Source: Amphiscolops sp. MND2022 (Eukaryota). From it: a stretch of DNA of 64,000 nucleotides. The position numbers were made by a program, and so were the translations under genes. Position 1 is the first letter of the stretch; each line of letters opens with the position of its first letter. The DNA is taken from positions 78,990,001 through 79,054,000 of the forward strand of contig OZ076409.1 in the NCBI GenBank assembly GCA_964187785.1. Direction: 5' to 3'. Positions 2,722 to 51,554 of the stretch are shown piece by piece. Under the pieces are notes generated by a model. It did no database searches. It worked only from the letters and a program-made list of their open reading frames with translations, and was not told where the DNA came from.

Positions 2722-3251
2722 AAAACTTTGTATTTAGTCGAGATGGGTTTTAGCATTTGGATCGTATATGGTGCTTCAAAAGAGACTTATTGATCTGTCA
2801 ATTCCAGAAATGCTAGGGTGAAACCCGTGTTAGTTTCCAATTTTCCAGGGAGCACACTTTGTAATTTTGAGAACAATTTCAAAAACTGTTTTGAACCTCG
2901 CAAAACTTTGTAATTTCTCGAGGTTGGTTTAAGCATTTTGATCGTATATGGTGCTTCAAAAGACACGTATTGATCTGCCGAGTCCGGAAATGCTAGGGTG
3001 AAGCTTCCAAATTTCCAGGGAACACACTTTGGAATTTTGTGAATAATTTTGAAAGTTTTTTTGAACCTCGCAAAACTTTGTAATTTCACGAGATGGGTTT
3101 TAGCATTTGGTTCGTATATGGTGCTCCAAAAGACACGTATTGATCTGTCGATTCCAGAAATGCTAGGGTGAAACCCGTACTAGCTTCCACATTTCCAGGG
3201 AGCACACTTTGAAATTTCGAGAGTAATTGCAAAAGTTTTTTTGAACCTCGC
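2722..3251. repeat. Tandem repeat, 3 copies of ~170-180 bp
   Basis: Unit AAAACTTTGTA...ATCGTATATGGTGCTTCAAAAGA...AAATGCTAGGGTGAAA...TTGAACCTCGC starts at ~2722, ~2902 and ~3072. Confidence 0.9.
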
Positions 3252-3445
3252 ACTTCGGACCTTTTGAAAATTGCTATGATTAGGAAAATTAAAAAACCAG
3301 TGTAAAGCAAATAAGTGTTCATTCCAAAATTTAAAAACACAACTAGAGAAAGCTGCGAAATGAAACACATAAGAACAGACACCAAACAAGACAATTAGCT
3401 ACAAAAGAAGTACTAGAAGATTTCTAGAAGTTCTACTGACTTGAT

Positions 3446-4063
3446 TTACTGTTTTCCAGCCGCTGTCAGAGCTTCGAAAATAGTAAAAGCCTGATTCGCC
3501 AAAAATCTTTGGATATTGTTGATAACGTAGTGATTTTTGACACCACAAAGATTCAGAAGTAACTTCGACATTGGATTTATTACCATTTGCGACTTTCCCG
3601 ATTTTTCCAACTTGATTCGAACTGATCCACAACGACCCGTCATATTGACGGAAATTCTGATTTTGCAGACTGATCGTTTAGCTGATAGAGTTGCGCCTGT
3701 AACGGCATCTTGTAATTTCTTTTTATAACATGAAGCAATACCACATCCAACAGCAACAACAGCTTTGAACTTTTCGGGTTTGTGTACTGGGATTGTTTGT
3801 ATAACTTCAACTTTAACAAATTCACCAGCTAGATAATAAACAATCTCAGATTCGAAAATGAAAGTTGTAACGCAGAAAAGTTGTTCCAAAGATTCGAATT
3901 TCTCACTCTTTACTAATCGACCAATTTTACTGCAGGGCGTCCAATTTTCTAGTTTTAACTGTTTTTGAGGTACGAATGTTTGATATTTTTCATAACTGTT
4001 ACCAAGTTTACCAACTTCGACAGAAGGACACGAAGCTGAGAGATCCGAAGAAGAAAAGTGTTT
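3446..4063 (-). CDS. RPS2-like: Divergent intronless homolog of ribosomal protein uS5 (eukaryotic RPS2); open frame of ~205 codons, start probably joined by a frameshift to ORF 3955-4182
   Basis: WTPCSKIGRLVKSEKFESLEQLF...IFESEIVYY...EVIQTIPVHK...FKAVVAVG...AVTGATLSAK...TGRCGSVRIKL...KLLLNLCGV aligns by eye with the RPS2 core (W.PVTKLGRLVK..KI.SLEEI..IKESEI..EVLKIMPVQK..FKAFVAIG..AIRGAI.LAK..TGRCGSV.VRL..KKLL.MAGI). Confidence 0.8.
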   Translation of the reverse strand, partial: KHFSSSDLSASCPSVEVGKLGNSYEKYQTFVPQKQLKLENWTPCSKIGRLVKSEKFESLEQLFCVTTFIFESEIVYYLAGEFVKVEVIQTIPVHKPEKFKAVVAVGCGIASCYKKKLQDAVTGATLSAKRSVCKIRISVNMTGRCGSVRIKLEKSGKSQMVINPMSKLLLNLCGVKNHYVINNIQRFLANQAFTIFEALTAAGKQ

Positions 4064-7154: not shown

Positions 7155-7916
7155 CCCGGGTCGACCCTCCATGGATATCTTAGCTAAGATCTTGTCAAGA
7201 TATTGCCAAGAATTGCAAGATGTTACGGTAAGATCTTATCAAGAGAACCATGTTCCCAAGAAAACTTTTATGGTAAAACCGTATTTGCCAAGAAAAAAAA
7301 ACCTGAATGGAAGTCAACAAAAACACTCAACATTTCTGCAGATTTATATTGTTAGACATTAAAACTTCTGTTAGCAATGTATAAAACTTGATTGTAGAGA
7401 TATTTATTTAAGAAGACGCTGTTTAAATTGTTCTTTCAATTGCAAAACTGTCGCCAACAAACGTCAGAAAAGCCTCGAGCTAAATCATTACCCAAATCAG
7501 TGCAATGACCGACTTTTCTAGCAGTAATAAGGCTGCTGAAACATGCTCAAAGGAAGCTGGAAATATGATTTTTACAAAAATTTCCGGATTTTAAGGTGTT
7601 TCAGCAGGTTGAAGAATTTTGATTATGAAAACGAGTAGAAATAGTTGTTGTTGGGTGAAATGAGCCTTTAGATTGAATCTCGGCTGCTTGTACCGAAGGT
7701 ATAACGTTTTTTATAATCTTAAAAATTTGTCCATCGTGATAAGATACGATCTTGGAATAAAAACTATCTTAGTAAGATGCGATCTTGGAATAAGTATTAT
7801 CTTAGTAAGATCTTAATAAGAATCTTGCCATAAGATCCATGGTTGCCAAGATGTAGTAAGAATTTGGCAAGATCTTGCCAAGACAGCCAAGATGCTAGTA
7901 AGAGGGTCAACCCGGG
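7155..7916. mobile_element. MITE of CMC/EnSpm type (CCC...GGG ends, 2-bp TSD TC)
   Basis: TIR CCCGGGT(C/T)GACCCTC at 7155-7169 and 7902-7916, TC on both flanks, subterminal CAAGATCTT repeats. Confidence 0.8.
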
Positions 7917-13000: not shown

Positions 13001-16000
13001 TTCCCTCACCCTTTTGAGTATGAGCTAAAAAAACTATTTACTAAATACGAGCCTCTAGTTCCGGTGTTCCGCATTGTAATCTGCTAATAGCAAAAATGGT
13101 ATCCTTAAATATAAGAGGTTTGTCACGAATTTGGAGGGAGAGAGAGCTTCTGGTCAAACTTCGGCCAACAGAAGTAAAACAAATGGAGTTTTTTGTGAAA
13201 GCAGTGAGCTCCCGCCTCAGGGCAAGCTATCTTGACAAACAAATTTTGTAACGTCAAGCTAACAGCGATATTCTAGAACTGGGACAATGCCTAGATTACT
13301 TGAACAGGAGGCATATGTCCTACTATAATCCTAGTCTTTAGTCCCGAAAAGGTCACCTAGGGACTTTCCATTGGTCTAAGGAGATCCCTCGAATGAGAAC
13401 TCCGTGGCGACGTGCCGGCACACTCAAAGTCCGAACACGTCCCACAAGCACGTAAAAGCGTTCTTAAGGGTTCCTGTGCGCTCCTACATACTCCCGGGGT
13501 CCAAAAACAGGGGTTTAGCAAAAAAACGTTCTATTCCGTGAATAAGATCTGAAATTGCGAATACAAGAATCTAACAGATCCTGTACGATCACGATCTACA
13601 AAATAATAGTCTCACAGCCATGAAATTATTTGAAATCAGCGCATTCTGCACTTCCATGAAGTTTTTCAGATTTTCAGAGTTTCTTGAGCAATCCGTTGAT
13701 ACCTCCATTCTTTGGGTTTTCCAGGACATTTTCTGAAAAAGATAGCACAACACTGGGTTCTTGTCTCTCTTCAGCTTCTAGATGTCTTCGGATGTCTGAC
13801 TATACGGATTTTTCGGTTGTTCGGGATGGGTTTGGGATGTTTTCGGGATGTTTCTCTTTTGATCTCTCTGTTCTTTTTTGATTTCAAAGACCGGCCAGGT
13901 CGGCCATCTGGACTCGCACAGTTTTGGTCTTCTTCATCGAAATTTTGGTATCGCACTGGTTGAACTTACATTCTTCTTCGTCTTTTCCCGACTTTGACTC
14001 AGGACAGGACGGAGAACGCAAGTTCATCCGTTTCTTATCTACTGTCAACTGATTCTGATTTAGCATCCTGGTTTTATCAGCGGTACTCGATCTTAACATA
14101 TTCATCATAAGCCCATTAGCTATTTGATTTTTTTTGCTGTTGCAAATTATCCATCAGCGGAGTATATATACATCATTGAATTAACCGAATATCCATCAGA
14201 GGATTAAACTGTCCCTGCTATAACGGGAAAACATGTTTTCCATCAAAACTTTAACCCCCAACTCGGTTTATCAAGCGAACAACTAAATCACTTTATGTCA
14301 CGAAGGAACAAAATACATCCCGGGTTGACCACCATACGAAAAACATGTAGATCATAAAATGTCATTTATGGTGTTTATGAAATCAGTTCAGCCATAAAAT
14401 GATCATACAAAAAGATCTATGGTCATTTTATGAGAAACATGTTTCCCATACTATGGTCATTTTATGGAAGGAATGGTTTCCATATATGTTCAAACTATGA
14501 AAACAGTGCTTTTTAAACAAGTTTTCACTGTCAACATTAATTAGTCAGAAATTAGAGTTCCTCTGTCTAACACGGTGACTTTTTCGGTTTTTCATCTTTA
14601 AAACTTCAAAAACATACTTTAAAAACATGCATTCCATGAAATAACCATACTTTGAAAACATGGGTTCAAATCATGTTGAGCTTCTAGCGAAAGGTGCCAC
14701 TTCCAGAAAAAATGATGAGTCCTAATATGACTTGTATTTTGTGAGGATAGTAACAGAAGAGCAGGTTTCATGAAAGTGCCATACTTCAAAAAATGATCCC
14801 ACACCTCTCATGCATCCTCTGCCTCCTACGCTTTCAACATTCACTTTTTTAACAGCTCATTGTGAGGTATCATACCAAATCTTTTCGCAAAATTGGTGTA
14901 CCGAGCAACTGATTCGAAACCAAATTTCAAAACTCGTCAAAATGGATCTTTAGCTTTGGATATCATTTAGCCTGTATGATTCTTTCGGGGAGAAGACTGA
15001 CTGGATCATTTTGTCGGATAGTCAGATTTTCGATTTCTGAATGACTGTCTTCGCCATTTGTAAACATAGTTTTAGAAATGCAGGTTCCTGGGTTTTGTCA
15101 GAGCTCAGAATACAAATTGACAAAATTTGTGTGACACTGGGTCAGACGGTTACTTTTCATAAGGTCCTTCATTTTGTTAAAATAAGCACTCCTGTTGCTT
15201 CGATACTTTTTAAAGGTAGAATTTGATTGATTGTGAGAGCGTCGAACGAGCAACGCCACAACTGGTATGTGATCAACAAACTTGCTTTCAATGAATCGAG
15301 CGCTAGTTCATCCAAATCTATATGCTTGCCTCGTTCAATGCTGCGTGAAGTTACACGGCCAATGCTTCGTTAGAGAGATAGTCATTCACAGGAAACACAC
15401 TCTACTCCTTGTGAAGAAGAATTTCTCGATTTCGTTAATAATAATGCAGTCTCTAAAAATGCAAATTCAGATGAAAGTGAAATATTTTGGGATTCACAAT
15501 TGGCGCTTCTTGTTTTCCACTGTCCAATGCTCTGGCTTCCCAGAAAAAGAGGAAGGAAAGTTTTATAAAAGAAAGAATTAATTTTTCAAGAGTTCCTATT
15601 AAGGAGGAATTGGGCTACTTTTTCAGTAAAGTTCTTTTACACAAAAAGATCAAGAAAGTGTTGACGTGGAAATTTTGGGCAATCAAGTGACGTACTGCAA
15701 TTTAATTGGCTAATCATAAGGAGTTTCCCTTAAATTTGCAAAAAAACAAGTATCAACAACATACTTGATGGTAAAAAAACCATAAATTACATGGAATTGC
15801 GATATTATATCAGAAAATAACAATAAACTGTATATTCAGTCATTTTTGGAGAAATATTAGCTGTTTTGTAGCATTTGAACATAAATTTCCAAAAATTCCA
15901 ATAAGGTTGAAATCTGAAATTTTCGTTTCTAAGAAATATGTTTGTAACAGGTGCATTTTCTACGACTTTTTAAAAATTTGTTTTCGTCTAAGCCCCCGTC

Positions 16001-16496
16001 AATTTTTACACGAAACTAAACGTTTTGCGAGCGTAAAGGACTCCTCAAGGTTTTTGGCACTATGCGACATTCCGGAGACCTTCCTCAATTTTCTGTTTTT
16101 TTGAAAGGTTTTTTCGTAGGTACGAACTACAATCTAAGGAGTAAGATCGAAACGCACTTTCTAACTGTAACTGTAAAATCTAAAAAACGAAGTTCTAAAT
16201 GTCATTTTTTGTAACTAAGATCTCGAGAATTCCATCTCCCGAATCGTAATTAAAGTCTAAATTTTGAACGGTATTCCTGGTTTTTAGATGTTATTCCCAA
16301 ATTGGAATTGGTTTAAAATATGGGCGAGCTTGCATACACCGTGTAGGACCCCACAATTTTCCTTGGACGTTATTCTTGTTGAGATTAGACCTTAGTTACG
16401 CTGCAAGCGTTTTAGATTTTAGTTCTTTAGATCTTAGTTACGAACTTTCTTTCGATCTTATTCCTTAGACCTCAGTTACGGTCCCCAGGTTTTCCG

Positions 16497-16943
16497 TTGA
16501 GAAAGAAAGGAAGAGAAAAAAAGATAGAGGGAGCACCCGCTTCGGGGCCCAATAAAAACAGACAACAGAGAACCCGACAAAATCGATTGGCCTCGGTCAG
16601 CGAACATCAGTGTGGAGATTGTGCTAACGCGCAACAAGTCAGTAAGTGGATAGGATGCAAAAAATGCAAGGTATGGATACATGCCAAATGCGCAAAAATC
16701 CCGGAGGACATCTCTGAGTTCCTCGTCAACTCGGAGAAATTCAAATTTTTCTGCAACTCATGCCAAGGGGACCCGATCAGACACTTCAATCTCAAACTCA
16801 ATCCCAAACCCAAACCCAATCCCTATCACAAACTCAATCTTTTCCAATTCAAAACCAATCTGAATCCCTTCCTTACAAAAATTTTAGATTCAATCCCAAT
16901 CTCAATCCTGCTTTTGACTTTGACTTTCTCCTGCAATAGCTAG
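16497..16943 (+). CDS. PHD-finger-containing ORF (probably partial)
   Basis: C4HC3 pattern CGDC...WIGCKKCKVWIHAKC...FFCNSC followed by an N/P/K low-complexity linker. Confidence 0.7.
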   Translation: MRKKGREKKIEGAPASGPNKNRQQRTRQNRLASVSEHQCGDCANAQQVSKWIGCKKCKVWIHAKCAKIPEDISEFLVNSEKFKFFCNSCQGDPIRHFNLKLNPKPKPNPYHKLNLFQFKTNLNPFLTKILDSIPISILLLTLTFSCNS

Positions 16944-17012
16944 TAAAAATTCGTAATATGAGTGCGCGTAACATTCCATTGATCATGTCTAGTCTTTTCA
17001 TTTGTTTTTCAG

Positions 17013-17510
17013 ATGACAGATGTGCATGTAGTGGAAGACAACGACGAGAATTCTTCAAATGGAGCAGAAACAGGTCCAAGTACGTCACGGATACTGGTTG
17101 AGTTCCGCTTGTGCGATACAAAAGGCTCGGACGTGCATAAGTTCTTTTTCGTTCAATTTGTGAATGGACGAAAAACGGATGTCAGAAAGTGCATCAAGTG
17201 TTCAACCTTTGTGAAGTGTCCGAATTCTGGAACCTGCACTTCATCGACACAAAGAGTCATGTACGAAAAATCAGGATATGAAGCGACCAGTAGACCAATC
17301 GGCATTGCAGTATCCAATTGCAAAGATTGACAAAAAAGAGGTCTTAACAAAGTCTGGAGACTTGTGTATAAGGATGGTTTTGCAATCACAGTGGTCGTGA
17401 ATTCCGAAACTTTACAAGAGATGTTCAAATCACTCAATTACTGCAGAGTTACGTACAACAGTCTCAATATATCCCTGGAAGAGACATATCAAGCAGTGTT
17501 TGCAACGAAA
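17013..17510 (+). pseudogene. N-terminal fragment of a hAT-like transposase with a BED-type zinc finger
   Basis: Follows a TTTTTCAG acceptor. SDVHKFF...RKCIKC...PNSGT, then VWRLVYKDGFAITVV.NSE.LQEMF. Frameshifted and truncated. Confidence 0.5.
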
Positions 17511-17989
17511 TGGGTACTTGCGTAAAAATGGAGTGTACGCCTTTGATCTAATTGCTTGGGTCTAATGGAATTAGATCTAACTGTTAGGTCTAACTTTCAG
17601 ATCTGATTTTATCTAAAATACTTAGGTCTAACCCCTTTATGATCTAAAATGTGTTCTGAAAGCGAAAATATAATGGGGTGGGCATATGCGATGTATGCAC
17701 GCTCTCCCTCACCGTCGCGAAGACCAGCTCCCACTACGATCGCTTCGCGATCTCCGTTCGAGCTAGGTCTTTGCTCCTGTTCGACCTCGCTTACCAAGAT
17801 GGGACTATTAGCGGCCCTAAGGGGCCGCGGGGCACTAGAGGAAATAAGGACATATCCGAGAGGCTACGTGGAATCAGGTCTAATGAAATAGATCTAAGAG
17901 AGGGGGCAAAACTTTCTCGCCACTTTCTGTTATTTTTGCTCTCAATCAATCTCAATCCCTAAGCGCTAAGATTGACCAATTCCAATCTC

Positions 17990-18688
17990 GGGTGGCTGTA
18001 AATAGGTCGAATTTTTCTGGTCGAAAGGACTGAGGTCGAACCTTTTGATCGAATTACAGGGATCGAATGGAATGCGGTCGAATTTTATCGTATTTGTTGT
18101 ATGGCTCGGTCGCTTCGCTCCCTTCGCCAAGTGGCAACATTGAGGCATTGCCATATGGCACGTCGCTCCGCTTCGCTTCGCTCCTGCATTCAGGGCACTA
18201 GGGGTATGTGAACATATCTGACTACGTTATAAAAATTTCGATCCGAGTTGTTTCGATCCCATTCAAAAATTTGGTTTTGTCGACCTGACGACTAACTCTG
18301 ATTTTCGATCCCGTTCCTTCGACCTATTTCCGCGCGGGTGGCTGTAAACAGGTCGAATTTTTCTGGTCGAAAGGACAGAGGTCGAACCTTTTGATCGAAT
18401 TGCAGGGATCGAATGGAATGCGGTCGAATTGTACCGTATTTGTTGTATGGCTCGGTCGCTTCGCTCCCTTCGCCAAGTAGCAACATTGAGGCATGGTCAT
18501 ATGGCACGTCGCTTCGCTCCTGCATTCAGGGCACTAGGGGTATGTGAACATATCTGACTACGTTATAAAATTTTCGAGCAGAGTCGTTTCGATCCCATTC
18601 AAAACATTTGGTATGTCGACCTGAGGACTAACTCTGATTTTCGATCCCGTTCCTTCGACCCACTTCCGCCAACCCTTTCCGCGCACCC
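17990..18688. mobile_element. MULE-like MITE with a second copy of the same family (18336-18675) nested in its right end
   Basis: GGGT...ACCC termini. Outer 9-bp TSD TCCAATCTC (17981-17989; 18689-18697). Inner 9-bp TSD TTTCCGCGC (18327-18335; 18676-18684). Confidence 0.85.
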
Positions 18689-18757
18689 TCCAATCTCTAA
18701 CCCAAAATAGAAAATCAATCTTCAATCTTTAGAAATTCAAGCGCTTGAAATGCCTGG

Positions 18758-19032
18758 AACCGATAACGGACGGAAAAGAACCTGGGGCAGGGACGTTTCG
18801 TCACCAGCCATTTGGGCTACAAAAATTTCAGCCCATCATGGGCTGAAATTTTTTTAGCCCAAATGACTGGTGACGAAACGTCCCTGCCCCAGGTTCTTTT
18901 CCGTCCGTTATCGGTTTTTGGCCATTTTTGGCCATTTAGTCGAAGGGACATTTGGGCGACCTTTTTGTCGCCAAAATGATTTTGGCGACAAAAAGGTCGC
19001 CCAAATGTCCCGTCGACTAAATGGCCAAAAAT
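18758..19032. repeat. Two adjacent near-perfect palindromes (18758-18916 and 18924-19032)
   Basis: Arms of ~79 bp and ~54 bp, each with a 1-nt centre (CAGCCCAT-C-ATGGGCTG; CAAAAT-G-ATTTTG). Confidence 0.9.
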
Positions 19033-19816
19033 GTTCACATGCCCCTAGTGCCGTAAATGCAGGATCGAAGCGAAGCGGAGCGACGTGCCATATGGCCATT
19101 CCTCAATGTTGGTACTTTGCGAAGGGAGTACTACAACAAATATAGTAGCCTCTTCAAACATATCAGTTAGTTGATCAAAATTTTGGGGACAAAGTTTGTT
19201 GTATTGGGAATCCCGAGCTCACCGTTAAAGTAGATAGTCTTCCATTGAGTTATAGTCTGTTTTCTGAAGTTTTTAATTTTTTCCATATCCAGGACAATTA
19301 GCGACTCATCTCAATTACGTTGACCTTTTTTCGAAATAAAAAGCTTTTGGTTACCAGGCTCAGCGATCGATACCTTGCTTGCAGCGGAATCCACGGCTTG
19401 AAAGTAATGTGTGGGGAGAATGAAAGTTTTGAAATCACCTTTGCTTCGCATTTTCGTTATTATCAATGCGGTGTTTTTGTTTGATCAATCACTGCACAAT
19501 ATAGCTGCCCATTATAGCTGCCTAATATAGCTTTCTAAAAATACAGCAAAAAATCCGATTTCGACCTTTCTTCGTCAAACTTTCACAAAAACTAACTACG
19601 AAGTCAACTTCTTCACACTTTTCTAACTTTTTTCGTTTCAATTTTTCAAAAATCAAGTACGAATTCACACCTTGTTCACACTTTTTCATTGATGTGATAT
19701 TTCATTGCCTGTTTCAGTGAAATAATTACCATTGGGTAGCTGAATTATAGGTAATACATATTGTGGCATATGCCGTTTGAAATTTGATTATTGTACAAAA
19801 TCTTTATTTTCAGGTA

Positions 19817-20790
19817 ATGGATGGGCCACTATCGTTCGAAGAATTCCAAAAGTGTATCCAGTCGGGTGTATTTCCTGGCGCAGTTGTTCCGTTGAGTCAC
19901 GTTCCACCTAGTAGCAACTCACCTGCGGTCCCCGATGGCATCGAAATTGTCGTGGAGGATGATGATGAAGAATCTAGCAAGCCAAGCCCATGGATAGCTA
20001 TGAAGAAACGTTCTCTCGACGGCCGCGACCAATATCATTGAATCAATCAAACGCTAAGCAAATACCGGCACCACAGCCACTTTCGTCAATGTCCTTAGTC
20101 CCTAATGTTCCATTGCATCAAAATGATAACATGCTGGGGAAGCAACCCACTTCCAAAGTCGGCAACCTTCCACTTCCTCCTAGTTTGCCGTTCCCTCTTC
20201 CTGGTCCCAATTTCACTCAGAATCAAATCTGGCCAATTATGGACCAGCAAAACTTCATTGCTGCTCCAAAACCCGCAAACCTTCCAATCTTTCATGGTTT
20301 TCCGGAGCGAAAAAGCAAAAGTTTTTGTTTTTTCGGAGATAGCCATGTTGGGAGGCTCTCGAAACATTTGGATAAGGACTGCACAAGGCATAGCATTACC
20401 TTCCATTTCAAATCAGGGTTATGCCTGAGAGATGCCTTTTCATTTATTCCAATGCTGAGCTCCTTCGATGTTGTTGTTATTCAATGCGGCGGAAACGACA
20501 TTGCTTTTCATCCCAGGAAAGATACGAAACCTGACTGGCCGGCACAGGTTTCAAACACTTTCAAACGTTTCCTCGACAAGATAGGCCCAAGCGTAAAGGT
20601 TAAAATTATGCCTGTCATCGGACGATTGGCCTACCCTTTGGAAGTACGGAATTTAAACGCACGCTTGCGAAAGCGTTTCCGTGGATGTTACATGAAAACG
20701 GAATTGAGAGAAAGCTTCGTTGATGGCGTCCATTTGACGAATAATTGCTACGCGGAACTTCTGCAGGAAACCATATTTTTTCTTGAATAG
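19817..20790 (+). CDS. SGNH/GDSL-family hydrolase with Pro-rich N-terminus; one frameshift near 19990-20040
   Basis: Block I FGDSH, block II SG, block III QCGGND, block V DGVHL...Y. Upstream GT..CAG intron 19751-19813 and AATAAA near 21024. Confidence 0.8.
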
Positions 20791-21380
20791 AAAACATTGA
20801 GCCTTTTTTTGCATTTTTTTTTGAATTTAAAAAACTTGAACTACTTTTGCCTGTTGTTTGATTCGTTTTGCATTTTTTGTGAATTTGAAACACTTGAAAT
20901 ACTTTTGCCTGTTGTTTGCTTCGTTTTGCATTTTTTGAATATAAAAACTTGACCCACGTTTGCCTGTTGTTTACTTTGTTGCTGTCATTTATCTTTCTTG
21001 CTTAACGTCATTGATTCACAAACAATAAAATGTCCAGCTATTGACGTTTTATCCTGAGCGAGTTATAGTTACTATTTCGTTTCAATGACCTTGCAGACAA
21101 CATAGCCTGAGTGTTTTCCCTTACTGAAAAAAGTTTTCGCGGTCTGTGATTCCAAATATATTACACTACACGTAAGAGTGCTACGACGATGACTTGAAAT
21201 TTTCACAGCGCAGGGTGTTCTTGGGTCTGGTAACTCTGGTCTTTTTGGATATAGTTTTTTTTTAACAGTTTGTAAGAGGTTGTCTGAGGAAAACGCTGGT
21301 TTCATTCTCTATTTTTGTAACAAAGTACAATAACTCTTTAACTCTCTGTACTTTTGATATGGTAGCTTTTTTCAGTGGCC

Positions 21381-21926
21381 ATGCCCAGAACATACGTCCG
21401 AAAACGCAAGGTTGGTTACAGTTCTCTGGAACTGGAACTTGGTTGCTCGTTAGTGGTCAATGAAGGCTTTTCTAAATCGCGCGCTGCCCTCTTAACTAAC
21501 ATTCCAAGAACAACCCTGTCGCGACGGTTAAATAAAACAACACCAACTGTTCGAACTGTGCTGAGCGATGGCGAAGAAAAGAGTTTCCTGAAGGAGATTC
21601 GTAACCTCCCTTTCCCGGATTTGACTCCCCTGAAGCATGTTCTACAGTATGCTTATCAATTCGCAAAGCGTCTCAATATAGCTGTTCCAGACGGGTGGGA
21701 GAATAAACAAGCAGCCGGTAGAGAATGGTGGTACAGCGTCAAAAGGAGACAAATGCACTCGTACAAATACCCTGAAAAGCAATTGAAATGCCCCTCCTGT
21801 AGGCTGAAATTTGGGACCGAAGAATCGAGTTTCATACAATGCCAAGTGTGCACCAAGTTCAATTGTTCAAATTGTTTTGATCTATTGACCTGTATTACTT
21901 GTGATAAATCTGCTCGGTTTGGATGA
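21381..21926 (+). CDS. Psq-type HTH plus CENP-B-type HTH (pogo/Tigger-like DNA-binding region) fused to a Cys-rich finger, with no DDE domain
   Basis: MPRTYVRK..S.SRAA...NIPRTTLSRRL..VLSDGEE...AYQFAKRL....W....AGREWW...KRR, then CPSC..CQVC..CSNC..CITC and stop. Splice acceptor just upstream; AATAAA at the stop. Confidence 0.75.
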   Translation: MPRTYVRKRKVGYSSLELELGCSLVVNEGFSKSRAALLTNIPRTTLSRRLNKTTPTVRTVLSDGEEKSFLKEIRNLPFPDLTPLKHVLQYAYQFAKRLNIAVPDGWENKQAAGREWWYSVKRRQMHSYKYPEKQLKCPSCRLKFGTEESSFIQCQVCTKFNCSNCFDLLTCITCDKSARFG

Positions 21927-22201
21927 ATAAAAGGGCTTTGCATTAGTATGTGAAGTTTCTCCATTAGTATGAGAAGTTCAATTAATTTTTGTAGTTCAAG
22001 AAATGTTTGTGTTTGTCTTTTGAGTCGTTTTCAGGTTTTTTTCCCAGAGAGGCCTGTTTGAGAGGCTCTCGGGAAGAATAAGTCAGTCCAATTTTAAATC
22101 AGTGATTGCCGTTTGCTCCGCTCACGCAACTAGCTGACCGACAATGTTTTGTGCCCAGCTCGGAGTTTCTCAACAGTACCTTTTTTCTAGAGTTTCGAGG
22201 A

Positions 22202-23478
22202 ATGCCTTTGCCTGATAGAGAATCCCGCGGACGTTCTCAGTTGAATGATGAGGATTACGATCTCCTCAAACTGGCCAGCCAAAAACGATGGGTATTTTAT
22301 ACCAAAGGGGACCAAGTTCCTGTAATCATGGAGTACAACAGTACTCTCTGGCCAGCTGATTTCTCAGTTCGAGCCAAGCTGGATCTCAAAAATGGGGACA
22401 AGGTGAGGGTGAAAAGCACACAGGTTACTTACAACATGTCACTTGTGTGCATCTGCGAGACAGAGAAAGTGAAGCGAAAAGCAAAGCAAGTGGTGGAAAA
22501 GGCGATAGAAACCGGCGGAAATTCAAGTGTGATGAGTCTAAACGAGTAGGTTTTGAATTGGAGTTGTTTTGGTCAAATGAAATAAAATTGTTTGCTGGAC
22601 AAGAGGTAAAATGAAATACAATATAACTATGACATTTACTTTTTTGAAGGACTGTTACTGACCCAGAAGCAGATAAAGAAAACTTCGAGCATGAGTGGCA
22701 AGTTCACGATCCTTCCACCCAACCTGTTGCTCAGTCGCCCGATGTTTCAACTAACGCCTTGAAACGGACAAAATCATTGTCTTTGAAGCACCAAAAGAAA
22801 CCTAGGGTTGTTTTGGGTGAGAAATCCATTCAAGCAAATCCCTCTGCTCAACATGTTGTGAATATGAGTCCTGTTGCACCTGTTCGGTCCACACCAATTG
22901 AGATCGGAGATTCAATCTTGGCTTCGGAAATGACGCCACAGGTATTTGGACATATATTGCGTTCACAACGACAAATTCGCGGTACAACCGAATTATTTTT
23001 ATATATTTTTAAGGCTCGAAGCTGCCAATGTGAAAAAAAGATCGACAAACTGAATGAGAAAGTTGATGAATATTTGAGGCAAATGACAGAGACCAATGAG
23101 AAAGTAATGAGAAAATTCGTGAAGCAGAATAGGATGTTACAGAATGAGCTTCTTGAAGTTTTCAAGCGTTCGGCTGCCTTTCCAACATCAAGCAACGCCG
23201 TTTTTCACAGCACCTCAGATAAAGGAGAAGCTATAGAATTTAATGGACAAAATCTTTTGGATTTGCGATCAACCGATGGGCCCAGCGCCTTCGGCCGCGT
23301 TCTTGCATCTCAAATGTTTGGAGAGGGGAAGGATTGCCAACTCGCGGAACAGCGTTTAGGTCTCCGGGTAGAGAAGAAGAACACACGAAAGTCAGTTGAT
23401 CCGGAATTGGAGAGAATTTTCAAAGGTTGTATGCACAAAATCGTTCGCATTTCCATTCCGTCCAATTTTCGAAAGTAA
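22202..23478 (+). CDS. Multi-exon coiled-coil plus BEN-like domain protein; 3' end uncertain
   Basis: In-frame GT-AG introns 22546-22649 and 22942-23013. Coiled coil KIDKLNEKVDEYL. BEN-like PSAFGRVLASQMFG...LG.....RKSVDP. Confidence 0.6.
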
Positions 23479-24200
23479 CGCAGTGTCGAAAGGTTATAAT
23501 GAAAGTGTTTTGCAGTCGAAGAGTTGTCAGACTCGCTTGAGCAACTATCAATAATTGTTCACTTGAAAATTCCGTTTTCCCCGACTGCGAAAAAGATCGC
23601 GGGTCACTGCTCTCCTTGCTTGAGTTCTTCGATCCGCTAAACTTGATATGTGTTTCTAGAGGTTGTTGAGAGGAATTTTCCCCATCAGAAGGAAGATGCT
23701 GTTCGTGAAGCTTTTCGTGGAGCCAATCAATATGGAGCGGAGGCAAGGGTTCAAATCAGAAAAAGCAGCTCAACAATGGACTAATAAATCAAGTCATACG
23801 TTTAAACATTGCCTGGAGAACGCTTGGTAGTTCTTCAGTGAAGCCCAATGTGTCTGCTTTTCCCGCAAATAATGCTGCTTTTTTGCAATACTTTTTGCTT
23901 TAGGTGTTTCAATAGTCAGTTCAGTGCAGCAATTTTTGCTCGCTGAACTTGCATGTTTCACGATGTTCTAAAATATCAACAACCTGCAATGCAATTGTTA
24001 AACTCGTTTACTTTGTACTCTACTGTATTGTGAGTTGTCATCTTTCTTTTCAACTTGCTTCAACCCAGCTTTCTCGAAATGTTCGATTGAAGATTTGTCA
24101 CTGATCAATTTTGGGACTTTTTTGTAGAACATTCAGGTATCGATACTTTTGTGTTTTTACTGGATTGTCTTTACATTTTGTTTTTTAAACATCTTTGAGA
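23470..24200 (-). pseudogene. Possible spliced gene of unknown function, convergent with the BEN-like gene
   Basis: Open minus-strand stretches (e.g. ORF 23420-23746) and a short GT..CAG candidate intron near 23985-24012. No recognisable domain. Confidence 0.25.
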
Positions 24201-24536
24201 ATAGTCCTATACTATTTCAACCAGTCCAAGTCACGAGAAAACATTTGGTATTCGAATAGTTTTCCCTAAGTTGTTTGATGAGACAATGAATAAAGGAAGT
24301 CAAGATTTGTTGGACGTTGTTTCGAAAGACCGTTAGGAATATCACTTCAATTTCTATTTCCGAATGATTTAAGGAAATTTTCAATTTGGTATGAGCTGGA
24401 TTTGCCAGATGAATAGTCGAGGCGCAATGTGTGGTGCTGGCTGTAGACAGGTTTACAGGCTGCTGTCACCAGATCCTGCGAAAATTGGTGCAATTTTTTC
24501 TTTTTGATTTTCAGAGCATAGTGGTTAATTTGGAGA

Positions 24537-25065
24537 ATGTCTGATAGTGATTCTTCCACTTGTGACAGTTCGGTTGATTTTGGGTGTAACGGAAATGGAG
24601 AAATCACACCGCAATTTCATAACACTGAGACATCAGAGAGGTCACATAACAGCGGAATGACGTCACCACAGTTAAGTATATCATGTGTTTTATTCCGAGG
24701 CTGCTGTCAATTTCGTTTGTTATTCTGTTTTCATCAACTTTTTCCCCTAGCTGTGAGTACCAATTTTCTCAGGAATTGTCTCTGATCTTTGCTTTGTTGT
24801 TCAGATCCTGAAGTCAAATCCTCTCCCAACCGAGGCGGAAAAAACAAGCGCAGAAAAGATCCTCGAAAACCACCAGCTGCGTCTAGCAGGAATTTTGCGT
24901 GAAAACCGAGCCAATAATAGAGAGTTCCTCAACGTTACTGAGATTCTTCTGAATGGAGCAACGTTGCCAGCTGACAATTCGAAGGATGCAGAACCAATTA
25001 TGCATGAAGGAGTGAACCTCATGAAACTTTTTGCTGGCTCAGAGCCGAGTAAGTTCGGAAGGACA
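24537..25065 (+). pseudogene. Truncated paralog of the BEN-like gene
   Basis: AEPIMHEGVNLMKLFAGSEPSKFGRT parallels GEAIEFNGQNLLDLRSTDGPSAFGRV. Similarity stops where the tandem array begins. Confidence 0.55.
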
Positions 25066-25070
25066 CTTAA

Positions 25071-28000
25071 TTTAATGACTCATCTCAATTACGTTGTTCT
25101 TTTTTCGAAATGAAAATCTTTTGGTTACCAGGCTCAGCGATCGATTCCTTGCTTGCAGCCGAATCCACGGCTTGAAATTGATGTGTGGGGAGAATGAAAA
25201 TTTTGAAATCACCTTTGCTTCGCATTTTCGTTGGAGCGTTGACGTGCACTTCATCCGTTGGGGTAAAATGGTCAGATGGACTACTTTGATTGTAATCAAT
25301 TTGTGTGTTTTTGTCCCTGCGTCTGGTTGGTGCTTTTTCTAGGCACGACCTTTCAATCAAGTATTTGGACGTTTTTGGGGTTGAATTGAGCGAAAATTTG
25401 GTAGTAATTAGATGATAGATGCATTTTATCCAGTCTCCACTGCTACAGCTGTTAGCTTCGTGACCCCTAATTCTTCCGTCGTTTCTCGAGGTCCCGAAAG
25501 AGGGAATGCTAATGATTTATTACTCCTCGGTGACAGGTTGTTTACCAGCTCTTTCGCAAGATGAGCAATGTTCTAACCAGCTAAAAGTCGTTGGAACAGT
25601 TCAGTGATAAGGGGAAATATGGTCGTGACGACTTAAATGTTCACGAAGTTCATAATTTTTCAATGGAACTTCCTTCTCCAAGTGCTTCATGATAAGAAAG
25701 TAAAGAAAACTGCGCTCGCTACCTGATGATAAGAATGCGTATTGTCTTCTTTCGAAAAAATGTCTGGACCTGATAATTTGATGAATAACGCTGTTAGGTG
25801 GTGAAAAGTAGAACTTTTACCAAAAGTTGTTTTTCATGTTTAAACCTCATCATAGTTTGCACCCATTCAGCAACCATATGTGTCCGTGGAGTAGAAAATC
25901 TTCCAATGAAAGTGTAGCCTGCAGTTCCGAAGTTCTTAATATTTTCCATATCCAGGACATTTAATGACTCATCTCAATTACGTTGTTCTTTTTTCGAAAT
26001 GAAAATCTTTTGGTTACCAGGGTCAGCGATCGATTCCTTGCTTGCAGCCGAATCCACGGCTTGAAATTGATGTGTGGGGAGAATGAAAAATTTGAAATCA
26101 CCTTTGTTTCGCATTTTCGTTGGAGCGTTGACGTGCACTCCATCCGTTGGGGTAAAATGGTCAGATGGACTACTTTGATTGTAATCAATTTGTGTGTTTT
26201 TGTCCCTGCGTCTGGTTGGTGCTTTTTCTAGGCACGACCTTTCAATCAAGTATTTGGACGATTTTGGGGTTGAATTGAGCGAAAATTTGGTAGTAATAAG
26301 ATGATAGATGCATTTTATCCAGTCTCCACTGCTACTGCTGTTAGCTTCGTGACCCCTAATTCTTCCGTCGTTTCTCGAGGTCCGGAAAGAGGGAATGCTA
26401 ATGATTTATTACTCCTCGGTGACAGGTTGTTTACCAGCTCTTTCGCAAGATGAGCAATATTCTAACCAGCTAAAAGTCGTTGGAACAGTTCAGTGATAAG
26501 GGGAAATATGGTCGTGACGACTTAAATGTTCACGAAGTTCATAATTTTTCAATGGAACTTCCTTCTCCAAGTGCTTCATGATAAGAAAGTAAAGAAAACT
26601 GCGCTCGCTACCTGATGATAAGAATGCGTATTGTCTTCTTTCGAAAAAATGTCTGGACCTGATAATTTGATGAATAACGCTGTTAGGTGGTGAAAAGTAG
26701 AACTTTTACCAAAAGTTGTTTTTCATGTTTAAACCTCATCATAGTTTGCACCCATTCAGCAACCATATGTGTCCGTGGAGTAGAAAATCTTCCAATGAAA
26801 GTGTAGCCTGCAGTTCCGAAGTTCTTAATATTTTCCATATCCAGGACATTTAATGACTCATCTCAATTACGTTGTTCTTTTTTCGAAATGAAAATCTTTT
26901 GGTTACCAGGCTCAGCGATCGATTCCTTGCTTGCAGCCGAATCCACGGCTTGAAATTGATGTGTGGGGAGAATGAAAATTTTGAAATCACCTTTGCTTCG
27001 CATTTTCGTTGGAGCGTTGACGTGCACTTCATCCGTTGGGGTAAAATGGTCAGATGGACTACTTTGATTGTAATCAGTTTGTGTGTTTTTGTCCCTGCGT
27101 CTGGTTGGTGCTTTTTCTAGGTACGACCTTTCAATCAAGTATTTGGACGATTTTGGGGTTGAATTGAGCGAAAATTTGGTAGTAATAAGATGATAGATGC
27201 ATTTTATCCAGTCTCCACTGCTACTGCTGTTAGCTTCGTGACCCCTAATTCTTCCGTCGTTTCTCGAGGTCCGGAAAGAGGGAATGCTAATGATTTATTA
27301 CTCCTCGGTGACAGGTTGTTTACCAGCTCTTTCGCAAGATGAGCAATGTTCTAACCAGCTAAAAGTCGTTGGAACAGTTCAGTGATAAGGGGAAATATGA
27401 TCGTGACGACTTAAATGTTCACGAAGTTCATAATTTTTCAATGGAACTTCCTTCTCCAAGTGCTTCATGATAAGAAAGTAAAGAAAACTGCGCTCGCTAC
27501 CTGATGATAAGAATGCGTATTGTCTTCTTTCGAAAAAATGTCTGGACCTGATAAGTTGATGAATAACGCTGTTAGGTGGTGAAAAGTAGAACTTTTACCA
27601 AAAGTTGTTTTTCATGTTTAAACCTCATCATAGTTTGCACCCATTCAGCAACCATATGTGTCCGTGGAGTAGAAAATCTTCCAATGAAAGTGTAGCCTGC
27701 AGTTCCGAAGTTCTTAATATTTTCCATATCCAGGACATTTAATGACTCATCTCAATTACGTTGTTCTTTTTTCGAAATAAAAATCTTTTGGTTACTAGGC
27801 TCAGCGATCGATTCCTTGCTTGCAGCCGAATCCACGGCTTGAAATTGATGTGTGGGGAGAATGAAAATTTTGAAATCACCTTTGCTTCGCATATTCGTTG
27901 GAGCGTTGACGTGCACTTCATCCGTTGGGGTAAAATGGTCAGATGGACTACTTTGATTGCAATCAATTTGTGTTTTTGTCCCTGCGTCTGGTTGGTGCTT

Positions 28001-29841
28001 TTTCTAGGCAGAACCTTTCAATCAATTATTTGGACGATTTTGGGGTTGAAATGAGCGAAAATTTGGTAGTAATAAGATGATAGATGCATTTTATCCAGTC
28101 TCCACTGCTACTGCTGTTAGCTTCGTGACCCCTAATTCTTCCGTCGTTTCTCGAGGTCCGGAAAGAGGGAATGCTAATGATTTATTACTCCTCGGTGACA
28201 GGTTGTTTACCAGCTCTTTCGCAAGATGAGCAATGTTCTAACCAGCTAAAAGTCGTTGGAACAGTTCAGTGATAAGGGGAAATATGGTCGTGACGACTTA
28301 AATGTTCACGAAGTTCATAATTTTTCAATGGAACTTCCTTCTCCAAGTGCTTCATGATAAGAAAGTAAAGAAAACTGCGCTCGCTACCTGATGATAAGAA
28401 TGCGTATTGTCTTCTTTCGAAAAAATGTCTGGACCTGATAATTTGATGAATAACGCTGTTAGGTGGTGAAAAGTAGAACTTTTACCAAAAGTTGTTTTTC
28501 ATGTTTAAACCTCATCATAGTTTGCACCCATTCAGCAACCATATGTGTCCGTGGAGTAGAAAATCTTCCAATGAAAGTGTAGCCTGCAGTTCCGAAGTTC
28601 TTAATATTTTCCATATCCAGGACATTTAATGACTCATCTCAATTACGTTGTTCTTTTTTCGAAATAAAAATCTTTTGGTTACCAGGCTCAGCGATCGATT
28701 CCTTGCTTGCAGCCGAATCCACGGCTTGAAATTGATGTGTGGGGAGAATGAAAATTTTGAAATCACCTTTGCTTCGCATTTTCGTTGGAGCGTTGACGTG
28801 CACTTCATCCGTTGGGGTAAAATGGTCAGATGGACTACTTTGATTGCAATCAATTTGTGTTTTTGTCCCTGCGTCTGGTTGGTGCTTTTTCTAGGCAGAA
28901 CCTTTCAATCAATTATTTGGACGATTTTGGGGTTGAAATGAGCGAAAATTTGGTAGTAATAAGACGATAGATGCATTTTATCCAGTCTCCACTGCTACTG
29001 CTGTTAGCTTCGTGACCCCTAATTCTTCCGTCGTTTCTCGAGGTCCGGAAAGAGGGAATGCTAATGATTTATTACTTCTCGGTGACAGGTTGTTTACCAG
29101 CTCTTTCGCAAGATGAGCAATGTTCTAACCAGCTAAAAGTCGTTGGAACAGTTCAGTGATAAGGGGAAATTTGGTCGTGACGACTTAAATGTTCACGAAG
29201 TTCATAATTTTTCAATGGAACTTCCTTCTCCAAGTGCTTCATGATAAGAAAGTAAAGAAAACTGCGCTCGCTACCTGATGATAAGAATGCGTATTGTCTT
29301 CTTTCGAAAAAATGTCTGGACCTGATAATTTGATGAATAACGCTGTTAGGTGGTGAAAAGTAGAACTTTTACCAAAAGTTGTTTTTCATGTTTAAACCTC
29401 ATCATAGTTTGCACCCATTCAGCAACCATATGTGTCCGTGGAGTAGAAAATCTTCCAATGAAAGTGTAGCCTGCAGTTCCGAAGTTCTTAATATTTTCCA
29501 TATCCAGGACATTTAATGACTCATCTCAATTACGTTGTTCTTTTTTCGAAATAAAAATCTTTTGGTTACCAGGCTCAGCGATCGATTCCTTGCTTGCAGC
29601 CGAATCCACGGCTTGAAATTGATGTGTGGGGAGAATGAAAATTTTGAAATCACCTTTGCTTCGCATTTTCGTTGGAGCGTTGACGTGCACTTCATCCGTT
29701 GGGGTAAAATGGTCAGATGGACTACTTTGATTGCAATCAATTTGTGTTTTTGTCCCTGCGTCTGGTTGGTGCTTTTTCTAGGCAGAACCTTTCAATCAAT
29801 TATTTGGACGATTTTGGGGTTGAAATGAGCGAAAATTTGGT
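25071..29841. repeat. Tandem array of ~5.4 near-identical 889/887-bp units
   Basis: Repeated ORFs recur at 25072, 25961, 26850, 27739, 28626 and 29513 (spacing 889, 889, 889, 887, 887). A diverged partial monomer lies at ~19240-19458. Confidence 0.95.
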
Positions 29842-30744
29842 GGTGTAAACTTGTACAGTGATTAATTGTGCTCTAAGTAAAGATTAAACAGGATTGTATT
29901 GGTATTCCAGATATGATTCTTTCATTAATGATTTTTTTGTTTCAAAAAAAAATGCAGATTAAAGCAGAAATAGTAATGATCCCCGGAGGGGCCTATTTTT
30001 CCTGAAAGTGCTTCTTTTTGTTGATATCAGTGTCGGCTGTGTGGCAGTTGCCTACGATATTCCCGAAACAATTGGAAGTTTTCGAGGTCCTGACTTGGTT
30101 TTTGAATGGATCTTGAAAACCTCCAAGTCTTCAGTTTAGTTGTTCACGAGTTGTGTCTGCTTCACTCTCTTTTTGTTGGTTCTGATATTTGTACTGTCTC
30201 ATATGCGTCCGCTTTAAAAGCGCTTCTCTATTAGTTTTTCACAAAACGAAAGAATAAGACGTCTCGATCTGACTTTTGGAATATTCTCGAAATTTTCGTG
30301 AAACTGTCGTAAGAGTTTTTTCGTTGTTTGTTTGGTTTACTTTGATTTTTTTTCTGAAAGTGCTTCATTTTGTGGTTATCAGTGTTGGCTGTGTAGCAGC
30401 TGGCTACGATATTCTTGGAAAATTGGAGGTTTTCGAGGTCTGGACGAAAAATGTGGACGAAAAAGAAGTTTCGGAAACGAATAATTGCTACAGATGGGCT
30501 AAACTCCTCAGAAATATGCTGCTTCATGAAAATTTTTATTTTCTTTTCCTTGATTTTTTTTCGATTACGTTTTATTTGTTTTTTTTTAATTATTCAAATT
30601 GAAATAAATTTGTTTTTGGTCCGTTGTTGTGTTCAAATCTTGTTGAGCTTCTAGCGAAAGGTGCCACTTCCAGAAAAAATGATGAGTCCTAATATGACTT
30701 GTATTTTGTGAGTATAGTAACAGAAGAGCAGGTTTCATCAAAGT

Positions 30745-31012
30745 GCCATACTTCAAAAAACATGATTTCCATAAGAAAGCCATACTTAGAAAACATGGCA
30801 TCCATAGAATGGCCATACTTCAAAAAACATGGTTTCCATAAAAGGGCCATACTTGAAAACATGGTTTCCATGAAAGGGTCATACTTGGAAACATGGTTTC
30901 CATAAAAGGGCCATACTTGAAAACATGGTTTCCATGAAAGGGTCATACTTGGAAACATGGTTTCCATAAAAGGGCCATACTTGAAAACATGGTTTCCATA
31001 GAAGGGCCATAC
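30745..31012. repeat. Subterminal ~29-30-bp tandem repeats of the large CCC element
   Basis: About 8-9 copies of GCCATACTTGAAAACATGGTTTCCATAAAAGG-like units. Confidence 0.85.
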
Positions 31013-33974
31013 AGTTATATGAAATCATGCAATCCATACAATGATCATATATGGAAAACATTAAAGTCATAGCAAGAACATAAAATGTTTTTTTTTGTAT
31101 GGCAACTAATTTCCATATATGGAAACATTTTATGGTTTGCATGTCAGGTCAACCCGGGATCTCTTCCTCATTGGTCAATCGATTGTTATTTACTTGTGAA
31201 ATGGAAGTTCATCCTAAATTCATCAACTCAAACTTAAAGAGTAAATGTACTGTTTTGGAGTAGTGAATAGTCCCCCCTCCTGTGTAATCCATCGCTAATC
31301 ACTCTGTGAGGTAATTTAGATTCACGATGATGAAAATCGGATACGCTTCAACACTCTATGCATTTGGTTTGCAAGGGTTCGTAGTTTTTACATCATTTCA
31401 CTATAAATGCGCTGCAGGTAAATAGAAAGTGTTGTAAAATGATTATTCACGAACAATTAACCAGATATGTTAGTTTTGCATTAGCATTGGCCACCCGGCG
31501 GCAACTCGCACTACAAGTTGCCACGTGACTATTAATTAGCACCAACCCGGGGTAGCGAGGGGAAGCGGTAGATGATTAGAGTTGCGTCTTACCATCTGAC
31601 AATGACAAGCCTAATTGCCAAAGGGGAGTCCGTATTACTGACTAGTCATTGAGAATTGAGCAACTATATTGATCAGTTAACGAAATTTTACAGAAACTCT
31701 ACCACAAATCTAAGTTCAGACTCAAATAACTGACATCTCATCTAACTCTGATCGTCTAGTTTTGTTAACTATTCAGATTTTTTGGCTAAACTCGGCGTCT
31801 TTACATCTTTTATCGCTGTTTTCTCATTGAACACATACGAGCAGTAAAATGTAGATTGGAACGAATCACTCAGCAAAATCATCGTAAATTCGTCACCCAT
31901 ACAAAAATACCATTTGTAAACTCGGCTCTTATATAAATTGATGTCATACTGTAAAGCTCACATTTTTGTGCTGAGAATATTGCTAGAATAAATCGAAATG
32001 TGCTGTAAAGTCCACGTTTTCACAGTCGTTGCCCCATTTCAATATTCGAACATACCTCTTCTGAGCTGTGTTTCGACTGTTGTTTCACTTTAGGTGGGAC
32101 TTAGTGTCCGTCGGGCTCTACCAATGAACAACGGGCTCTACCAAGATTAAACAAAAGATACTGACGACGAAATTTCTGGTCATCCAAGTTCTACCTTGTG
32201 TGACGCTTTACTTTCATCAGCTAAAATCACATTTTTTGCACCGGTCATTTGCACAAGGACCAGTGGCCAATTCTCTGGAAGTAGCCGTGCCGTCATCAAG
32301 TGCTTTTTGACAGATGAGAGTGGAATGAGTTTGTTCCAAGGCTACAGCTTGTAGATATTTCTACAATAGCTTTGAATGACGCGCAAAAGTATTATATTTG
32401 CGTTTTTGTCTACGAGAAAGAGAGCTTGTTTTGAGATGCTTCTACTAAGAGTTAGCAAGTTGAGCCTCCCGAATTCTTGTGGATGTCACTAGTTGGTTCG
32501 GGTCAGCCATCTATCGTGAGTATCCCCAACGTAGACTACATTCTTCTTGTCAGAGCTTCGGTTTCAAGCATTCCTCGAGGGGTTGAAGCCCCGACTACTG
32601 ATGAATTCATCGTTTTTGAGCCGGACGTTGGGACTACTGATTTAGCCACTGTTTACAGCACTCGGTAGAGTGCTGATTTTTGTGGTCGAGCTGGGATCTT
32701 CGAGCTGTCAGCTCCAGCTGGTTCTGCGCCGGGACTCGAGGTCAGGACAGTTGTCTTTTGCCTCTAGTGGATTGAATTATCCTAAAGTTCAGCATGCAAC
32801 GCAATGAAAAAGTGTTCCCGGCGTCATTTGTCTGTTGCTGAGGTGCCAAAGGCTGCAGAGGAGTTGATCGGGTCTAGAATTAGTAGTAGTACTGAAACGT
32901 AACTCTATTTCATATATTCTTTCTTCCGTTTCATTTCATTTCTGTAATCACTTCTTTTCTGTAATCACTGAATGTTCTTCAGGCTGATTCCGAATTTATT
33001 TTTATTCAGTCGAATTTACAGAATCAGTTGAACAGTTAGTAACTGAGTACTTCGTAATTTTAGTAAATCTGCGTAACTAAGGATTTCGAATTGGACGTAG
33101 GTTGTACTTTACTTACCGGACTGGTATTTCTGACAACCAATTCATCTTCAGTGCTGTCAGTTAATTCAGGAACGTTGGTATCTCTCGTCTGTGATTGAAT
33201 AAAAGGCCTACCTAGATGTAGGACACTAATTGGGATCTGATAATTTGTACGCAATTAGATCACCGTCACATAATTGGCCGGGTCAACATTTGTGCTAACG
33301 TGATCTTTGTGCACCGTGATCACGCTAGTGTTTATTGGGAAGTTGTCGCAGGGCTACGGCCTGTGACGGCAATTTCTATCAAATTCCAGCGCAAAATGAT
33401 AATACAAATCCTTAACTAGGGGTACTACCTGTTCAAACCATGAGGAGTTTCGGTCGATATGCCCACACCAGAACTAATATTTCATAGTTGGATTAGATCA
33501 TGTTTTGTCATTTAATATTCCGTTCTGTGCTTGTTACAATGTTGAATTACTGTTTTTTGATAATGTTTTCAATGTAATTATATCAGAAATGTAAAAGTTA
33601 GCGCCAATTGAATGAAAGGCATTCAATTGTGCTGAAGGAAAGGAACGAGTTCAAATGTTCTACTGCTGTAGATTAATGTACACGCGGTCCTGAATTCAAT
33701 AAGCCAATGAGAGTACAGCCGGACAGCCTTATTGTAAGTCAAATATAGTGCGCATTATGTAAATAGTCAATTTAAGTCTCTCGTGTAATTTTAACACCTA
33801 CAGGAGTAACTCATTTGATGCTATTTATATCCTGACAATAAGGTGACGTGCTGTTTCCCTTCGAGCTAAGGATGAGATCCTACGGCTCTCCGGTGTGTAG
33901 CAATAGGCATTTAAGAAGATTCAAGTATCTGCTAGTTATCTATTTCCACCGATGTTGAGCATGTGTCATGTAGA

Positions 33975-51500: not shown

Positions 51501-51554
51501 AGAGTTTGGGATTCTGGGGTGAATCATGGATAGCCATCACACTATCCATCCGGT

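Follow-up and report, generated by a model that had tools for sequence, protein, structure and literature searches.

Does a 16.8-kb span of DNA that is bounded by matching CCC ends, contains several apparent genes and lacks a recognizable transposase represent a vehicle for captured host genes, or a damaged copy of an element with a transposase of its own? The question is raised by positions 14319–31158 of a 64,000-nucleotide stretch of contig OZ076409.1 of Amphiscolops sp. MND2022 (assembly GCA_964187785.1), referred to here as the window; positions given without a contig name are those of the window. A preliminary description of the window had proposed one large CMC-type element whose ends belong together and which transports captured host genes, as Pack-type elements do. 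The copy in the window is a real transposon that is internally deleted and unable to make a transposase. Our reading, to which we assign a probability of about 0.8, is that it belongs to a large transposon family encoding a CMC-type DDE transposase that has a Suv4-20-like SET domain at its N terminus; this domain would likely methylate histone H4 lysine 20 (H4K20) at bound nucleosomes. Within this reading, the identity and gene content of the family are very probably correct, and methylation of H4K20 at the element's own sites, as judged from conserved residues, would fall slightly short of an even chance.

Ends, copies and internal deletion of the window element

The terminal sequence CCCGGGTTGACC is found at 14319–14330 (+) and 31147–31158 (−), delimiting an element of 16,840 bp, with AT on both flanks (14317–14318 and 31159–31160) as the 2-bp target-site duplication. 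The inverted match between the two ends is 12 bp long and extends no further. With two mismatches allowed the 12-mer has five matches, a number reached in 2 of 100 shuffles, and because the 12-mer alone is not rare the element ends were searched for genome-wide. This yielded 142 exact 19-nt left ends and 107 exact right ends, with none for the controls. A 2-bp duplication, its sequence varying, was present in 15 of the 16 paired copies examined and also in two further copies. Motifs of the CCATA/AAACATG type are concentrated at both ends, with CCATA occurring 10 and 19 times per 480 bp as compared with 0.85 inside. The terminal inverted repeats, AT flanks, span and related subterminal repeats of the preliminary description all stand. 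The left subterminal region (14331–14793, +) corresponds to the left half of the family's miniature inverted-repeat transposable element (MITE) and is followed by a family-specific left arm (14794–15857), present in other family copies, in which no gene was found. The right subterminal region includes a 32-bp tandem repeat of 8.7 copies (30731–31012, +).

Long copies sharing the ends and contents of the window element, for which the preliminary description had suggested a search, were found in other flanks. The closest, on contig C4 (C4:49192830-49212816), is 99.4% identical to the window element, has both ends and is flanked by a TG duplication. Another (C1:5079725-5100814) is ~90% identical with an AT duplication, and partial family copies lie at C9:19.05M, C7:37.66M and C5:66.69M. 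The flanks of the window element are part of an old dispersed repeat, and at five of the six loci examined empty-site paralogs have both flanks contiguous with nothing between them, the spacing at one being 57 nt where 58 were expected; the paralogs are only ~70% identical, however, and a single AT at the empty site is therefore not readable. These observations show that the window element transposed as a whole, with 2-bp duplications.

Domain scans of the window element (Pfam and profile) found no transposase, in agreement with the preliminary description. The C4 sister contains ~5.05 kb that is absent from the window where 25066 meets 25070; the remainder of the second BEN-like gene lies there, together with a SET frame and a transposase. 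The junction in the window (25066–25070) has AGGACA microhomology and a few filler bases, and the family's SET-transposase sits at this deletion point in two copies. The C4 sister has a loss of its own, of the segment equivalent to 19864–24415 (the SGNH, HTH-Cys and first BEN-like genes), at AGTCG microhomology. Since the losses in the window copy and in the C4 sister, each at a short microhomology, affect different segments, the full-length form would have been ~21.9 kb. Such deletions may arise in gap repair after excision. A window segment at 19181–19458 (+) is a diverged copy of one found 3′ of the transposase gene in the sister.

Some family copies are rearranged in other ways. The C1:5079725-5100814 copy (L021–L023) has three tandem BEN-SET blocks of ~2.7 kb each, and its transposase is internally deleted. 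At C1:99914028-99920322 (L034), a left end and its flank recur three times, spaced ~3.1 kb apart, a tandem duplication including an element end. Two copies (L027 and L029) are broken by sequence resembling a long terminal repeat retroelement.

Most genomic ends pair as short elements of ~0.4–0.9 kb, as would be expected if the window span were two independent MITE ends enclosing host sequence, or if the long form had grown from a MITE by insertion. Beyond the 12-bp termini, however, the window element has, close to each end, one copy of a 133-bp direct repeat (14661–14793 and 30628–30760, both +, 97% identical), a feature absent from the preliminary description, and the aligned MITEs consist of 14319–14793 plus 30761–31158, joined across this repeat, which the long copies carry twice. 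Of 8 copies carrying the repeat only once, 6 begin as the left version at diagnostic sites and finish as the right, as predicted for recombination between the two repeats, although a single event later amplified would look alike. The MITEs thus likely arose from long elements by recombination across the 133-bp repeat. Direct repeats common to both ends also occur in the six other families examined and offer a simple path from 20-kb elements to MITEs. With these chimeras, the empty-site paralogs and whole long copies that have their own 2-bp duplications in different flanks, the independent-ends explanation, which was also named in the preliminary description as the outcome that would overturn it, is refuted by the sister copy and can practically be set aside.

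The MITE at 7155–7916 (−), flanked by a TC duplication, had been described as defined by the same end. It shares only the terminal 11–12 bp with the window element and instead matches both ends of an 18.5-kb SET-transposase sister family on contig C4. Judging from the shared 12-bp termini, cross-mobilization between such families is possible.

The SET-transposase and its SET domain

In the C4 sister a predicted 66-nt GT-AG intron links SET and transposase in frame, and four predicted introns in all give a protein of ~960 amino acids that aligns end-to-end with intron-free relatives at 27–30% identity. The D, D, CxxC, HxxxH and E motifs are present in the transposase of the sister copy and in its relatives. 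In two sister families SET and transposase lie in a single frame, of 1016 and 1043 amino acids, and an AlphaFold model of the longer protein (predicted local distance difference test score 71) matches both RAG1 (E 5e-13) and Suv4-20 (E 5e-8). With Pfam, SET was above cut-off on the sister exons, and Transposase_21, DUF1258 and Plavaka were below it; DUF1258 was above cut-off in three other families and Transposase_21 in one of the four proteins matching it, in a comparison without Repbase references. Ratios of nonsynonymous to synonymous substitution (dN/dS) between copies were 0.34–0.57 for SET and 0.35–0.48 for the transposase, with an out-of-frame row for transposase exon 2 discarded. The C4 gene has lost one nucleotide at the end of exon 2, where two other copies keep the full AG/GT junction. 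The possibility that intron 2 of the transposase is spliced out of frame in a conserved way was considered and dropped, as the missing base is present in those two copies. The search for an autonomous CMC transposase called for by the preliminary description was answered by the SET-transposase of the sister copies, but not by a full-length family copy.

The pairing extends well beyond the window family. A SET domain lies just upstream of the transposase at ~48 places in the genome, as counted by hand matching of two match lists, and many other genomic transposase matches are without SET. Ends were found for several SET-transposase families, all of them CCC with 2-bp duplications and lengths of 10–20 kb, and one family includes three copies that are 99.7% identical. 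Thus the SET-then-transposase pair spans many diverged CCC-ended families. Among 208 fetched library proteins, 42 have both domains and come from ENA, Logan and NCBI sources. Cluster look-ups for 18 close homologs, 17 of them SET-bearing, returned no names; named relatives without SET come from a wasp and amphioxus. In a catalytic-core tree of 33 sequences, built solely from top matches of a SET-bearing query and with 50 short rows omitted, the 24 SET-bearing sequences fall on one side of a branch with 96/91 support and the nine SET-less ones apart, which suggests that SET-bearing transposases form one clade.

The transposase resembles those of the CMC/CMCT group (EnSpm/CACTA, Mirage, Chapaev, Plavaka and Transib), as characterized in PMC12730594, in its DDE triad with C(2)C and H(3–4)H between the second D and E, observed in the sister copy and relatives rather than in the window copy, and in the RAG1/Transib-like fold of the 1043-residue model. 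The elements share with that group short terminal inverted repeats, subterminal repeats and a duplication of 2 bp, within the 2–5 bp given there. They differ in having CCC...GGG ends in every family with ends found, where that paper gives 5′-CA..TG-3′ termini for the majority, and in the SET domain on the transposase, the BEN-like and SGNH genes and the direct repeats common to both ends. The large-element assignment of the preliminary description is upheld by the long copies in other flanks. CCC ends can occur in animal EnSpm elements; our literature search turned up no paper for them.

Among relatives of solved structure, the SET domain is nearest SUV420H1/H2 (profile E ~1e-27, with the next family at 7e-10), and Suv4-20/KMT5B-C is the closest SET family by both sequence and fold. 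With residues numbered as in PMC3874154, all 30 SET domains retain Ser161, Asn182 and Cys185 as well as the post-SET CxC, and 29 retain Tyr217. In contrast to Suv4-20/KMT5B-C as described there, the domain is fused to a transposase and its methyl pocket is changed: only 5 of the 30 domains retain Phe191 (25 have Tyr, Trp or His there, 22 of these Tyr), none retains Trp174, and 12 retain His183, with Ser in 17. As the Phe191/Trp174 pocket for a monomethyl substrate is lacking, we term the domain Suv4-20-like rather than a member of the family. A homolog search with the SET frame alone returned nothing among longer proteins, which is weak evidence, and a search with the SET alignment returned three proteins only, with no host Suv4-20 among them.

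Two interpretations of this domain need to be weighed. SET may no longer act on H4K20. Its role could instead be to bind nucleosomes and thereby steer or open the target site, or its substrate could be a protein other than a histone, for instance the transposase or a BEN-like partner. This accords with the altered pocket and with the loss of activity on Phe-to-Tyr mutation of Suv4-20h1 reported in PMC3874154, and these two facts together mean that product, substrate or activity itself may differ. Against it stands the near-invariance of Ser161, Asn182, Cys185, Tyr217 and the zinc ligands over ~1 change per site, which fits kept catalysis, and we regard this interpretation as a real possibility that is nevertheless the less probable of the two. 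From the conserved residues, the domain is most likely a retained, re-tuned enzyme that would still act on H4K20, a modification linked to DNA repair and silencing (PMC3874154).

The following scheme can be envisaged. The transposase would bind the ends and subterminal repeats, bringing the SET domain there, and SET would likely methylate H4K20 on the nucleosomes bound. The BEN-like and helix-turn-helix (HTH) proteins may act as DNA-binding helpers, in the role of TnpA, the helper of plant CACTA elements. More tentatively still, and at rather less than even odds, these families may represent an ancient, still-active animal CMC clade in which a transposase fused to a working, re-tuned Suv4-20-type enzyme would write H4K20 methylation at the element's own ends or breaks and so steer repair or silencing, the same SET module being carried also by an unrelated tyrosine-recombinase-like class in that genome.

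Accessory genes and the case for gene capture

The cargo listed in the preliminary description is partly as proposed: SGNH, HTH-Cys and BEN-like genes are present (BEN being a lead only), but the first is frameshifted, the second BEN-like gene is cut and the PHD frame is a piece of a long interspersed nuclear element (LINE). That the window copy lacks a transposase and that HTH-Cys and PHD are confined to the window family would agree with a Pack-type non-autonomous element whose chromatin genes were captured from the host and which depends on an unrelated transposase for its movement. This explanation conflicts with the family's own SET-transposase at the deletion point in two copies, and also with the histories of the individual genes.

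The SGNH/GDSL hydrolase gene (19817–20790, +) has its frame shifted upstream of the domain by a 5-nt insertion near 19975 relative to another copy. In the window the Pfam match is weak and the GDS, GGND and DGVH motifs are present; membership of the SGNH/GDSL group follows from the GDS, GxND and DxxH blocks and from Lipase_GDSL above cut-off in a sister family. The first BEN-like gene (22202–23787, +) is intact, with four exons, GT-AG introns and an open frame of 390 amino acids encoding an unnamed N-terminal domain, a coiled coil and a BEN-like C terminus. The second (24538–25066, +) is cut by the deletion at 25066 and continues in the sister copy. The BEN label, a lead only, comes from an atlas match of 0.91 with 190 shared features, BEN being found on 20–33% of cluster members; the domain before BEN had no atlas match of at least 0.9. 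The BEN-like proteins had no Pfam or PDB match, and a low-confidence model (predicted template-modelling score 0.29) gave no Foldseek match, the only matches being to coiled coils.

Profiles over the fetched loci placed SGNH in six of eight families and BEN-like genes likewise in six of eight, the families being 20–50% alike in protein. The domain before BEN was found in all five further loci outside profile construction, and one degenerate locus had neither. Gene order varies, with the orientation the same as that of the transposase. These data show that the SGNH and BEN-like genes are the element family's own and travel with the SET-transposase across diverged families.

The remaining two candidates trace to other transposons. 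The gene with a psq/CENP-B type HTH and a Cys finger (21381–21926, +; weak Pfam match to HTH_psq) was found in the window family only and derives from a pogo-type transposase, without the DDE part. It occurs in four family copies, and the one further homolog, at 35%, is a pogo-type transposase that shares its C-terminal Cys finger. Close copies adjoin other family genes, and dN/dS values of 0.25–0.50 suggest that the gene was recruited. The PHD sequence (16500–16777, +), above Pfam cut-off and called a PHD open reading frame in the preliminary description (frame 16431–16943), is a nested fragment of LINE ORF1, the 280-bp piece being 88% identical in DNA to a LINE with endonuclease and reverse transcriptase frames. 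No host-gene capture was seen among the accessory genes; Pack-type capture, as the preliminary description had it, does not survive the recurrence of genes across families and the pogo and LINE origins of the others, and we consider it very improbable. The idea of an element with its own regulatory toolkit is plausible, its strongest part, the SET domain, lying in the piece absent from the window.

Several points weigh against the transposon family with a SET-bearing transposase as reconstructed here. No full-length copy of the window family was found in the assembly. Its SET-transposase fusion rests on the predicted 66-nt intron and, given the 1-nt loss in exon 2, the C4 gene stays open only if a weaker donor, lying 4 nt downstream, is used. 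To these are added the biased sampling of the catalytic-core tree, the accessory-gene profiles built partly from the families scored, and mixed dN/dS values, 0.39–0.99 for SGNH and 1.3 and 3.3, with few changes, for the domain before BEN. The departures of the SET domain at Phe191, Trp174 and His183 count on the same side, as does the sharp reduction of Suv4-20h1 activity by Phe-to-Tyr.

Other SET-bearing elements and neighboring repeats

The fusion has a counterpart in SETMAR/Metnase, a domesticated, non-mobile primate gene in which SET of another class is N-terminal to the DDE domain of a mariner transposase. SET is N-terminal to DDE in both, and here the fusion is on mobile, multi-copy elements, so a natural mobile SET-transposase would be the counterpart of that domesticated gene. 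Transposon-borne chromatin writers are rare and mostly without functional tests in the literature consulted, and here SET is tied directly to the transposase and kept across many diverged families. The near-identical, intact-looking copies (three at 99.7%) mean that the SET-transposase can be assayed; intact families are represented at C3:69.80M, C11:15.19M and C4:38.53M. Cut-and-paste elements must handle repair and silencing, both tied to H4K20 methylation (PMC3874154).

The giant Plavaka of the red alga Bostrychia (bioRxiv 10.1101/2025.02.11.637652) is similar in belonging to the EnSpm superfamily, in its 17–19 kb length and in having several accessory genes, SET and tandem repeats. There, however, SET belongs to a gene of its own, PAG2, in which it is linked to an adenine methylase, whereas here it is Suv4-20-like and on the transposase; the other partner genes differ. 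The present host is likely an animal, as two of the fetched stretches contain a BEL/Pao-type gag (DUF1759), which is not known outside animals. HarbingerS and the SET-bearing MuDR of Phytophthora are likewise DNA transposons carrying a SET methyltransferase, but belong to other superfamilies and another host, and SET in HarbingerS is described as an accessory gene (PMC12730594). SET domains are also in print for Helitrons. No paper on a CMC transposase fused to a Suv4-20-like SET turned up in the literature searched, and Repbase Reports, most subscription journals and bioRxiv supplements, which lay outside the search, may hold such families; the SET-transposase variant of CMC elements is apparently undescribed.

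A second multi-copy class (L104, L105, L106, L107, L109, L110 and L112; for example L107:4222-7680, +) has the same Suv4-20-like SET beside, or in one 1153-residue frame with, a recombinase-like C terminus. By eye this C terminus is tyrosine-recombinase-like (Crypton-like), an unconfirmed label; the recombinase-like C termini gave no PDB match, and one of six a weak integrase SAM-like Pfam match. One pair of copies shares 99% identity across 10.5 kb and is bounded on either side by (TTA)n, and one locus has an SGNH-like frame.

Within the window element, the 889-bp tandem array (25070–29950, end approximate, +), another feature absent from the preliminary description, has six unit starts. Units number six in the window, nine in the C4 copy and two in older copies, and their identity of 97–99% indicates recent expansion; no protein family was found in the three frames scanned. 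A nested repeat fragment with a BED-finger-like frame (16777–17505, +) has ~90% copies elsewhere and is hAT-like by eye, without Pfam confirmation. It is followed by a nested high-copy short repeat (17530–17945; more than 20 copies at 93–95% among the matches listed) and by a duplicated 345-bp unit with palindromic repeats (17988–19128).

Elsewhere in the window, 8812–11660 is another CCC-ended element, with CCCAGTGACAC ends, a TT duplication, 11-bp subterminal repeats and a non-LTR reverse transcriptase-like fragment at 10290–10910. Broken frames at 732–2031 resemble, by eye, a protein-primed DNA polymerase of Polinton type, and a degenerate frame at 3446–4063 is ribosomal protein S2-like by eye; neither has a Pfam match. 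A pogo/Tigger DDE_1 frame adjoins a hAT dimerization-domain frame at 54415–55957. Satellite-like arrays (31/62/120/181-bp and 180-bp units), together with a 97% duplication 3062 bp apart, occupy 51552–52003, 2708–3252 and 60609–63970.

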